Below, piece by piece: positions 17,101-19,122 of a stretch of 64,000 nucleotides of DNA. Location: assembly GCF_054482595.1 (NCBI RefSeq), contig NZ_CM137008.1; one strand, given 5' to 3'. The notes under the pieces were generated by a model. The model was not told where the DNA came from. It searched no databases and saw only the letters and a list, made by a program, of their open reading frames with translations. The translations under genes and the position numbers were made by a program. Every line of letters begins with the position of its first letter. Position 1 is the first letter of the stretch.

Positions 17101-18486
17101 ATGAGTCAGAAATACCTCATTCGCATTGCAGAACTGGAAAGCCAGCTCCGTCAGAAAGACCAGCAACTGAGTCTGGTTGAAGAGACGGAGGCCTTCCTGC
17201 GCTCTGCACTGGCACGTGCCGAAGAAAAGATCGAAGAAGATGAACGGGAAATAGAACATCTGCGGGCTCAGATAGAAAAACTGCACCGGATGCTGTTCGG
17301 TACCCGTTCTGAAAAACTGCGTCGTGAAGTTGAACTGGCTGAGGCTCTGCTGAAACAACGTGAACAGGACAGCGATCGTTACAGTGGGCGGGAAGACGAT
17401 CCTCAGGTTCCCCGCCAGTTGCGACAGTCGCGCCATCGTCGTCCGTTACCGGCACACCTTCCCCGTGAAATACACCGCCTGGAGCCAGAAGAAAGCTGTT
17501 GCCCGGAGTGTGGCGGTGAGCTGGATTATCTGGGGGAAGTCAGCGCTGAACAGCTGGAACTGGTGAGCAGTGCCCTGAAAGTGATCCGCACAGAACGGGT
17601 AAAAAAAGCCTGTACAAAATGTGACTGTATTGTTGAAGCACCGGCGCCGTCCCGCCCGATAGAGCGTGGTATCGCGGGCCCCGGATTACTTGCCCGCGTG
17701 TTAACGGGAAAATACTGCGAACATCTGCCACTGTATCGTCAGAGTGAAATCTTTGCCCGCCAGGGTGTCGAACTGAGCCGGGCCTTACTCTCCAACTGGG
17801 TTGACGCGTGCTGCCAGTTAATGACACCGGTGAATGATGCCCTGTACCGTTATGTAATGAATACCCGCAAGGTTCACACTGATGACACACCGGTAAAGGT
17901 ACTGGCACCGGGTCAGAAAAAGGCGAAAACAGGGTGTATCTGGACGTATGTCCGGGATGATCGCAATGTGGGTTCGTCATCTCCTCCAGCGGTCTGGTTC
18001 GCGTACTCGCCGAACCGGCAGGGGAAACACCCGGAGCAACACCTTCGCCCCTTCCGGGGTATCCTGCAGGCGGATGCGTTCACAGGTTACGACAGGTTGT
18101 TCAGTGCAGAACGTGAAGGTGGTGCACTGACAGAAGTTGCGTGCTGGGCCCATGCCCGGCGAAAAATCCACGATGTATACATCAGCAGCAAAAGTGCGAC
18201 GGCAGAAGAAGCCCTGAAGCGAATCAGTGAACTGTACGCCATCGAGGATGAAATACGGGGGTTACCAGAGTCAGAGCGTCTTGCAGCCAGGCAGCAGCGA
18301 AGCAAAGCGTTACTGACGTCGCTGCATGAATGGATGGTGGAGAAGAATGGCACGCTGTCGAAAAAATCCAGACTGGGCGAAGCGTTCAGCTATGTACTGA
18401 ATCAGTGGGACGCCCTCTGTTATTACAGTGATGATGGTTTGGCAGAAGCGGACAATAACACAGCTCAAAAAAGATTTCGTTCGTGA
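17101..18486 (+). CDS. IS66-family TnpC (Orf3) transposase, C-terminally truncated
   Basis: 461 aa with coiled-coil N-terminus and CCPECGG zinc motif; shorter than the typical length I recall (~520 aa). Confidence 0.75.
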   Translation: MSQKYLIRIAELESQLRQKDQQLSLVEETEAFLRSALARAEEKIEEDEREIEHLRAQIEKLHRMLFGTRSEKLRREVELAEALLKQREQDSDRYSGREDDPQVPRQLRQSRHRRPLPAHLPREIHRLEPEESCCPECGGELDYLGEVSAEQLELVSSALKVIRTERVKKACTKCDCIVEAPAPSRPIERGIAGPGLLARVLTGKYCEHLPLYRQSEIFARQGVELSRALLSNWVDACCQLMTPVNDALYRYVMNTRKVHTDDTPVKVLAPGQKKAKTGCIWTYVRDDRNVGSSSPPAVWFAYSPNRQGKHPEQHLRPFRGILQADAFTGYDRLFSAEREGGALTEVACWAHARRKIHDVYISSKSATAEEALKRISELYAIEDEIRGLPESERLAARQQRSKALLTSLHEWMVEKNGTLSKKSRLGEAFSYVLNQWDALCYYSDDGLAEADNNTAQKRFRS

Positions 18487-18597
18487 GGTCATGATGCAGT
18501 AAGCTTCATTTCGCGCACAGCCATCCCCCTGAAATCTGGCTGACTGTTATTTCGCAACAGTTATTGAGTAAATCTTTAACCTGTTAACAGAGGGTTT

Positions 18598-19122
18598 ATG
18601 AAACGTAAACTTATTGCCTTTGTGATTCTGGCTACATCATCCTGTGGATATGCAGCCACCAAAGATGTAACAATGAATCTTGTTGATAGTGACGGAAAAG
18701 AGCGAAATATTGGTAAAATAACCATCCAGAAGACACCCTACGGGCTGCTGTTCACCCCTGATCTTCACTCCTTACCCGCCGGCATTCATGGTTTTCATGT
18801 ACATGAAAACGCAAGTTGTGCTCCTGCCCTGAAAGATGGAAAAACTGTCGCTGCTTTATCTGCAGGTGGTCACTTTGACCCGGAAAAAACAGGGAAGCAT
18901 CTCGGTCCATGGTCTCCTGATGGCCACCTAGGTGATCTCCCTGCGCTTTATGTCACTCATGACGGAAAAGCAACCTACCCGGTGCTTGCGCCAAGACTAT
19001 CTGAATTAAAGGAGCTCGATGGCCGTTCGCTAATGCTCCACGCAGGAGGTGATAATCATGATGACCATCCTGAACCTCTAGGTGGCGGTGGTGCAAGAAT
19101 TGCCTGTGGTATCATCCCATAA
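18598..19122 (+). CDS. sodC: Periplasmic Cu/Zn superoxide dismutase, island-borne paralogue
   Basis: 174 aa with signal peptide and Cu/Zn-SOD motifs ([18 protein letters not shown]); differs from the chromosomal SodC sequence as I recall it. Confidence 0.85.

Follow-up and report, generated by a model that had tools for sequence, protein, structure and literature searches.

A probable accessory periplasmic Cu,Zn superoxide dismutase of the phage-type clade in an Escherichia coli leuX island, next to an IS66-family fragment read as a deletion scar

The window analysed here, a stretch of 64,000 nucleotides (NCBI RefSeq assembly GCF_054482595.1, contig NZ_CM137008.1), comes from the E. coli chromosome. 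Core genome (ahr, yjgR, lptFG, pepA, holC, valS) occupies the right third of it, from position 47500 or so rightward, and the rest is a large genomic island, with a P4-type integrase gene (about 45927-47192) adjoining the attachment-site tRNA gene. A sodC paralogue lies roughly 28 kb inside this leuX island, preceded by the remains of an IS66-family element and by the very end of a gene for the solute-binding protein (SBP) of an ABC transporter (Table 1). The neighbourhood is rich in IS elements and every neighbour of sodC is a pseudogene or an IS remnant; an ABC transporter, a LysR gene and IS elements close by are decayed, and the sodC ORF is intact. The first-pass annotation of this DNA had placed the start of the feature at 18470, which belongs neither to tnpC nor to sodC but to the SBP gene remnant.

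Table 1 Features at the sodC locus and at the island attachment site (window coordinates)
Feature	Coordinates	Strand	Basis or remark
IS66-family fragment, dead, without either terminus	16522-18464	+	Identity to complete IS66 copies
tnpA' (N-terminus missing)	16616-16723	+	Within the IS66-family fragment
tnpB	16720-17070	+	Within the IS66-family fragment
tnpC'	17101-18464	+	Reads through to a stop at 18486
Microhomology ACACAGC (7 bp), crossover point of the putative deletion joint	18458-18464	+	Common to tnpC and the SBP gene
Remnant of the SBP gene, last 38 bp including the TAA stop	18465-18502	+	Alignment to intact copies
Native SBP-sodC intergenic region, 95 bp	18503-18597	+	Alignment of contexts
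Conserved segment of about 3 kb: sodC, hypothetical ORF, IS3-family remnant (20413-21031)	18534-21483		99-100% identity between unrelated chromosomal contexts
sodC paralogue, 174-aa Cu,Zn superoxide dismutase precursor	18598-19122	+	ATG-initiated ORF; Pfam, NCBIfam, PHROG, structural model
Terminator-like hairpin, GGTAAGGG-loop-CCCTTACC	19130-19152	+	8 nt past the sodC stop
Small Cys-rich hypothetical ORF, 74 aa as annotated	19251-19475	-	ORF reaches 19610
tRNA-Leu(CAA), leuX	47379-47463	-	Island attachment-site tRNA

The 174-aa Cu/Zn superoxide dismutase (SOD) ORF that had been described at this locus is present, and its product scored above the cut-offs of two family profiles, Pfam PF00080 Sod_Cu (E 6.2e-32; 111.3 bits versus a cut-off of 28.9; profile positions 3-133 of 133) and the NCBIfam equivalog NF007628 'superoxide dismutase [Cu-Zn] SodC' (218.4 bits; cut-off 165). 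It also matched PHROG 1975, a moron SOD family (E 2.8e-89). A check of the metal-binding histidines had been proposed for this protein, and all Cu and Zn ligands were found. Mapped on the human SOD1 sequence, the Cu ligands are H67, H69, H92 and H148 (human H46, H48, H63 and H120) and the Zn ligands are H92, H101, H110 and D113 (human H63, H71, H80 and D83), with H92 as the bridging histidine in both sets. The catalytic R167 and the disulfide C74-C170 are present as well, and the metal ligands, R167, C74 and C170 were invariant across an alignment of 28 sequences. The AlphaFold model (mean pLDDT 85.9) was matched by Foldseek to SodCI from Salmonella (1EQW; E 2e-21, TM 0.94-0.95, rmsd 1.6 Å), and the predicted fold is the Greek-key beta-barrel of Cu,Zn-SODs.

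By inspection, residues 1-19 form a putative signal peptide with a basic start (MKRK), a hydrophobic core and a signal peptidase I site (GYA/A, cut at the slash), and this leader can be aligned to those established for SodC, SodCI and SodC-F. The gene is in a tRNA-linked island, and its earlier description as an island-borne, secreted paralogue is supported. The leader contains a lipobox-like motif around Cys16 (TSSC16, in ATSSC16-GYA/A) and presumably fits the PROSITE PS51257 lipoprotein pattern. The residue at position -3 of this lipobox is unusual, namely Thr and not Leu or Ala, and lipidation of the island SodC may be inefficient for this reason. The protein is already in RefSeq (WP_000823671.1, 'superoxide dismutase family protein') in all carrier genomes. 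The allele serves as the comparator 'E. coli SodC2' in one alignment figure from 2025 (PMC12352638), and our literature searches returned no functional or genomic study of WP_000823671.1. Overall, the island sodC is an already annotated, ordinary sort of accessory gene, a horizontally acquired periplasmic Cu,Zn-SOD.

The core sodC gene was found in 5425 of 5426 complete E. coli genomes, so the island gene is a genuine extra copy. It is also distinct from the core gene, as the first-pass annotation had stated: the two proteins share 56.6% amino-acid identity over the full length, and the two genes gave no match at the nucleotide level even with 'distant' blastn. Full-length identity was 79.9% to SodC of Stx2a phage (the SodC-F type of O157:H7), 62.6% to SodCI of Salmonella Gifsy-2 and 62.1% to SodCIII of Fels-1. 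In a ranking of PDB sequences, SodCI came top (1e-64) and the core enzyme (1ESO) followed with 1.4e-55. By these identities and this ranking, the island SodC is closer to SodC-F and SodCI than to the monomeric core SodC. A phylogeny had likewise been proposed as a check, and the neighbour-joining tree placed the protein apart from core SodC, inside a clade that consists solely of accessory alleles of E. coli. The other members of this clade are found in phage tail-gene regions, on plasmids of about 100 kb with adjoining IS3, and beside fimbrial operons and IS3 fragments. Among these are the mobile alleles P0003 (on plasmids of about 90-110 kb) and P0012 (by fimbrial operons), which are IS3-associated and 68-82% identical to the island SodC; they share its clade and are separate alleles at separate loci.

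Compared to better-known enzymes, the island SodC has the following likenesses and differences. SodCI (Gifsy-2; PDB 1EQW/6D52) is 66% identical to it over the mature chain, and both were horizontally acquired. SodCI is an established virulence factor with PhoPQ control and periplasmic 'tethering', neither of which should be assumed for the island enzyme. The genes for SodCI and SodCIII lie amid phage tail genes, unlike the island sodC. The core SodC of E. coli (b1646; PDB 1ESO) shares family, fold and ligands with the island protein and is co-resident in the carrier genomes; the interface region reads TDKGLEFSP in the core enzyme and TPYGLLFTP in both the island SodC and SodCI. The core enzyme is a monomer with stationary-phase expression (PMC2569942). 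SodC-F1 and SodC-F2 of the O157:H7 lambdoid prophages (D'Orazio et al. 2008, PMC2569942) resemble the island SodC in ligands, in length (175 versus 174 aa), in a Cys-containing signal peptide (..AASCGYAA versus ..SSCGYAA), in a conserved terminator stem and in being extra to core sodC. They differ in being prophage genes, whereas the island allele is located in a tRNA-linked island and on IncF plasmids, in the lipobox (AASC versus TSSC), and in the upstream DNA, and hence regulation, which is unrelated to that of the island gene.

We consider it highly likely, from sequence comparison, that the island sodC encodes a functional accessory periplasmic Cu,Zn-SOD of the phage-type clade, with the mechanism proposed here and the history set out below. 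The precursor would be exported by the Sec pathway and cut by signal peptidase I after Ala19; alternatively, by analogy with SodC-F1, part of the pool might be lipidated at Cys16 and anchored in the membrane. The mature beta-barrel would bind Cu and Zn and dismutate superoxide in the periplasm, shielding envelope targets from superoxide of external origin, such as that produced by phagocytes, which lies out of reach of the cytoplasmic SodA and SodB. The enzyme is probably useful against oxidative attack. The island SodC is probably also dimeric, with higher activity, greater protease resistance and firmer metal retention than the monomeric core enzyme; the dimer state, like the lipidation, is extrapolated from SodC-F1, which is 80% identical. 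SodC-F1 was dimeric by gel filtration, had about three times the specific activity of core SodC, resisted proteinase K and EDTA, and occurred in dual forms, soluble and lipid-anchored via its AASC lipobox; it was expressed in log phase and anaerobically, and mutants were H2O2-sensitive (PMC2569942). The suggested association of mobile extra sodC copies with oxidative resistance is in line with this work, in which protection was demonstrated for the clade in E. coli O157:H7 (PMC2569942).

The island allele was found in 125 of the 5426 complete E. coli genomes, or about 2%, at 150 places, and the copies listed share at least 99.7% nucleotide identity. It is also carried on IncF plasmids of poultry E. 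coli and of E. albertii. The carriers have four different left junctions. In 32 genomes, including APEC O2-211 and EC17CM2, an intact SBP gene (Pfam SBP_bac_8), itself preceded by permease genes, lies 95 bp 5' of an allele that is 99-100% identical to that of the window. The truncated IS66 joint of the window is found in 34 genomes. In most of the remaining genomes, about 55 as estimated by proportion from an evenly spaced sample, the allele is preceded by a left-end fragment of an IS629-like element, with the joint at window position 18534. On the IncF plasmids, the allele is preceded by a truncated backbone gene for a 3'-5' exonuclease and the last 70 bp or so of the SBP gene. More of the SBP gene survives in the plasmid copies than in the window, but IS2 cuts the former about 220 bp past sodC, and the chromosomal copies have about 2.4 kb more downstream DNA than the plasmid copies (within 18534-21483). 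Neither form is therefore derived from the other, and the common ancestor would have been a longer SBP-sodC segment. A stretch of 26.9 kb at the left of the window, which includes sodC, is 99.96% identical to part of an island adjacent to tRNA-Phe and yqgA in dog isolates; with the leuX island as the location here and the tRNA-Phe (pheV) island elsewhere, the module has passed from one tRNA-linked island to another.

Of 60 carrier records taken at even spacing, around 33 came from chicken, turkey or poultry meat and 13 from humans, which, as a raw count among carriers, suggests a possible enrichment of the allele in poultry strains. A stronger reading is that extraintestinal E. coli has in this allele a poultry-associated factor for fitness or virulence. 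Selection would then have preserved a stable dimeric SOD, anchored in part by lipid, while its flanks were remodelled independently at least four times. The gene would shuttle between the leuX and pheV islands and the IncF plasmids found in E. coli and E. albertii, and it might at first have been co-expressed with the ABC transporter next to it. With all of its parts taken jointly, we regard this account as rather doubtful. The aatA-like autotransporter located near sodC would, on such an account, often travel with it.

The weakest link in the case for a functional gene is expression of the island sodC in its truncated context. A Shine-Dalgarno sequence (GAGGG, 18590-18594) precedes the ATG, and the upstream DNA common to all four contexts amounts to only 64 bp (18534-18597). 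A promoter scan of the 64-134 bp of native DNA upstream of sodC returned no convincing sigma-70 promoter. The sole sigma-70 match, at 18584-18611, overlaps the start codon, and the frequency of such matches in the region was not above that in shuffled sequence. A repeat upstream of sodC, C(T/A)GTTATT, was considered as a PhoP box and dropped, since its period is 14 and not 11.

An alternative explanation is that sodC is a hitch-hiking relic, intact only through recency, unexpressed or of no benefit here, and carried along passively with cargo such as autotransporters. The outcome of the promoter scan would suit this explanation, as would the loss of the original upstream operon in a setting of pseudogenes and IS remnants, and copies so nearly identical have had little time for decay. 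The ORF is, however, intact in all copies listed, across four independent flank rearrangements during which the neighbours decayed. Moreover, the dN/dS of the gene was 0.08, a figure that refers to the phage homologue only, synonymous sites being saturated against more distant homologues, and this points to strong long-term purifying selection. The close homologue SodC-F is also both expressed and protective (PMC2569942). We regard a passive relic as quite unlikely.

The position of sodC directly 3' of an IS66 tnpC had led to the proposal of IS-mediated capture. In such an event the element would have picked up or mobilised sodC, e.g. by one-ended or aberrant transposition, and brought it to the island. 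The identical orientation of the two genes and the IS-rich surroundings agree with such a view. The observation behind it holds. The tnpC gene is indeed 3'-truncated, with 454 of 530 codons of IS66 identity followed by a read-through tail of 7 codons (ORF 17101-18486, plus strand), and the gap from the stop of this ORF to the sodC ATG is 111 bp, close to the roughly 110 bp first given. The element is also truncated at its 5' side, where the left end and 224 nt of tnpA are missing, as are the right end and the last 229 nt of tnpC (76 of 530 codons) at the 3' side. Complete copies of the matching IS66-family element are annotated as ISEc23-like in several records.

A fragment that lacks both inverted-repeat ends and is joined to its neighbour inside tnpC argues against capture. 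Within 16000-24000 we found no composite transposon, second IS66 copy, matching repeat or target duplication around sodC; the sole repeat structure there consists of the inverted repeats of an unrelated, intact IS629-like element (22328-23637). The identical allele also occurs without IS66 in about 90 of the 125 genomes and on plasmids. Finally, 38 bp of the SBP gene, which lies ahead of sodC where IS66 is absent, as in the 32 genomes described above, are still present in the window, and that SBP-sodC arrangement is, for this reason, the older one. Capture by IS66 is consequently very improbable.

The SBP gene remnant is joined to tnpC inside that gene, at a stretch of 7 bp shared by both, which indicates that illegitimate recombination at this microhomology deleted the DNA between the SBP gene and a copy of IS66. 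Judged from these alignments, the IS66 fragment is the scar of a later deletion and not the carrier of sodC. A query centred on the junction retrieved the exact joint from 34 of 5426 genomes, at 100% identity across 400 bp, as expected if it arose once and was passed on afterwards by inheritance and transfer. A larger count of 69 genomes came from a query at 80% coverage, for which no IS66 part was required, and is hence not a count of the joint. The idea that the plasmids retain a piece of IS66 was raised by a 25-bp overlap of the IS66 and plasmid sodC matches and was rejected: the overlap is SBP sequence, and alignment to the intact SBP gene identified its likeness to tnpC as patchy chance similarity.

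According to the proposed history, the first position of sodC in E. coli would have been 95 bp 3' of the SBP gene. This adjacency is probably itself a mosaic, because the SBP and permease genes have a G+C content of 57% and sodC one of 48%. In the lineage of the window, a microhomology-mediated deletion would then have removed the original upstream neighbours of sodC, so that the tnpC of an IS66 copy already in place came to abut the final 38 bp of the SBP gene, and the module would afterwards have spread in tRNA-linked islands (leuX here, pheV elsewhere). The locus is in this respect a worked example: an IS fragment found beside a cargo gene may have been left by a deletion and need not have captured that gene.

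The more distant past of sodC may involve phages. Nucleotide identity between the island and phage genes is 76.5%, and the homology covers the ORF with about 8 bp before its ATG and about 40 bp after its stop, ending near 19160. The stem of the terminator-like hairpin is conserved with sodC of the Stx2a phage, and its loop differs. With this stem inside the limits of homology, the conserved unit comprises the Shine-Dalgarno sequence, the ORF and the terminator, which is the anatomy of a moron, and the island unit would be homologous to the sodC morons of phages. A phage origin of the unit is, by this measure, ancient or indirect, because the identity is only 76.5% and no phage gene lies nearby. 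The alternative that a lambdoid prophage decayed at this very spot and left sodC as its only remaining moron, as the nearest relatives of sodC in phage tail-gene regions, the PHROG match and the shared terminator stem might suggest, is barely credible. No phage gene or fragment adjoins sodC in the window or in the other three contexts, phage homology reaches no further than 8 bp before and 40 bp behind the ORF, and a recent decay would have left an identity higher than 76.5%.

Horizontally acquired Cu,Zn-SODs are known to aid the survival of Salmonella and E. coli O157:H7 under oxidative attack by the host. With the accessory sodC described here, the same theme is met in a form carried by islands and plasmids. 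This form is present in about 2% of complete E. coli genomes, a good number of them from poultry, and might be of minor importance as a marker or a fitness factor of avian and extraintestinal strains. The current understanding of SodC biology is unchanged by this locus; the results of most use are its corrected history, with a deletion scar and an ancestral ABC-transporter neighbour, and the data on its distribution. The small Cys-rich hypothetical ORF downstream gave no match in Pfam, PHROG or NCBIfam, and it accompanies sodC in all chromosomal contexts.

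The ABC transporter that is original to the upstream side of the accessory Cu,Zn superoxide dismutase gene sodC comprises two permease genes and an SBP_bac_8 protein, has a G+C content of 57% and weakly resembles 2-aminoethylphosphonate and YdcS-type binding proteins. In E. coli, it was nearly always accompanied by the accessory sodC (128 vs 125 genomes), and in the records examined it was cut off on its own upstream side. A fragment diverged from, but of the same kind as, the intact, IS629-like IS3-family element downstream of sodC forms the left junction (the DNA joined upstream of sodC) in approximately 55 other genomes. 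The small Cys-rich ORF was found alongside sodC in all chromosomal contexts, and a search for Pfam, PHROG and NCBIfam matches to it returned none. sodC appears to be linked to a 3498-bp autotransporter gene on plasmids and chromosomes alike; the IncF plasmid CP099079.1 carries an autotransporter of this size roughly 1.8 kb from sodC, a length that agrees with that of the APEC adhesin AatA.

Features in and around the sodC-bearing island (window positions unless stated otherwise)
Feature	Position	Strand	Remarks
ABC transporter original to the upstream side of sodC	L017 2558-5016; L018 4907-5968		records of strains EC17CM2 and APEC O2-211, respectively
Fumarase/aspartase, MurR, dcuC, malic enzyme	first 5.8 kb of the 26.9-kb block
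Autotransporter gene	7595-11092	-	3498 bp; WP_001360336.1
ISL3-family transposase gene, then ArsP_1-type permease and divergent ArsR/SmtB regulator	13595-16345
Small Cys-rich hypothetical ORF	19251-19610	-	annotated 74 aa; ORF up to 119 aa
Intact IS3-family element	22328-23637		1310 bp; 25-bp inverted repeats; annotated frameshift pseudoknot
Second autotransporter gene	24187-26874	-
dndBCDE	~27725-32787		annotation transferred from near-identical strain SM107
dptFGH	~34563-42577		annotation transferred from near-identical strain SM107
Phosphoethanolamine transferase and outer-membrane protein genes	44104-45603 and 43190-43930		coordinates transferred from SM107

The first 26.9 kb (window 1-26925) showed 99.96% identity to part of an island found in dog isolates (NZ_CP187758.1). 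That island adjoins tRNA-Phe/yqgA, and the window copy of the block belongs to the island at tRNA-Leu (leuX). The initial 5.8 kb of the block are inverted beside an IS1 in strain Santai. In the window, a ProQ/FinO fragment and the dnd genes come after the second autotransporter gene; strains Santai and CUVET have a polysaccharide-lyase-8, GH88 and PTS (aga-like) cluster in that position. Within the block, the ISL3 segment, whose permease has a loop rich in Cys, Ser and Thr, may represent an ISL3 element that carries passenger genes involved in handling metals or metalloids.

A complete DNA phosphorothioation defence system (dndBCDE and dptFGH) takes up the half of the island nearer leuX, spanning ~27725-42577 by the coordinates carried over from SM107. 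Strain HCM-24C-3 has dptF immediately upstream of the same sodC-containing module. Just within the island, adjoining the integrase, are the phosphoethanolamine transferase and outer-membrane protein genes, the former of which could have a bearing on polymyxin susceptibility.
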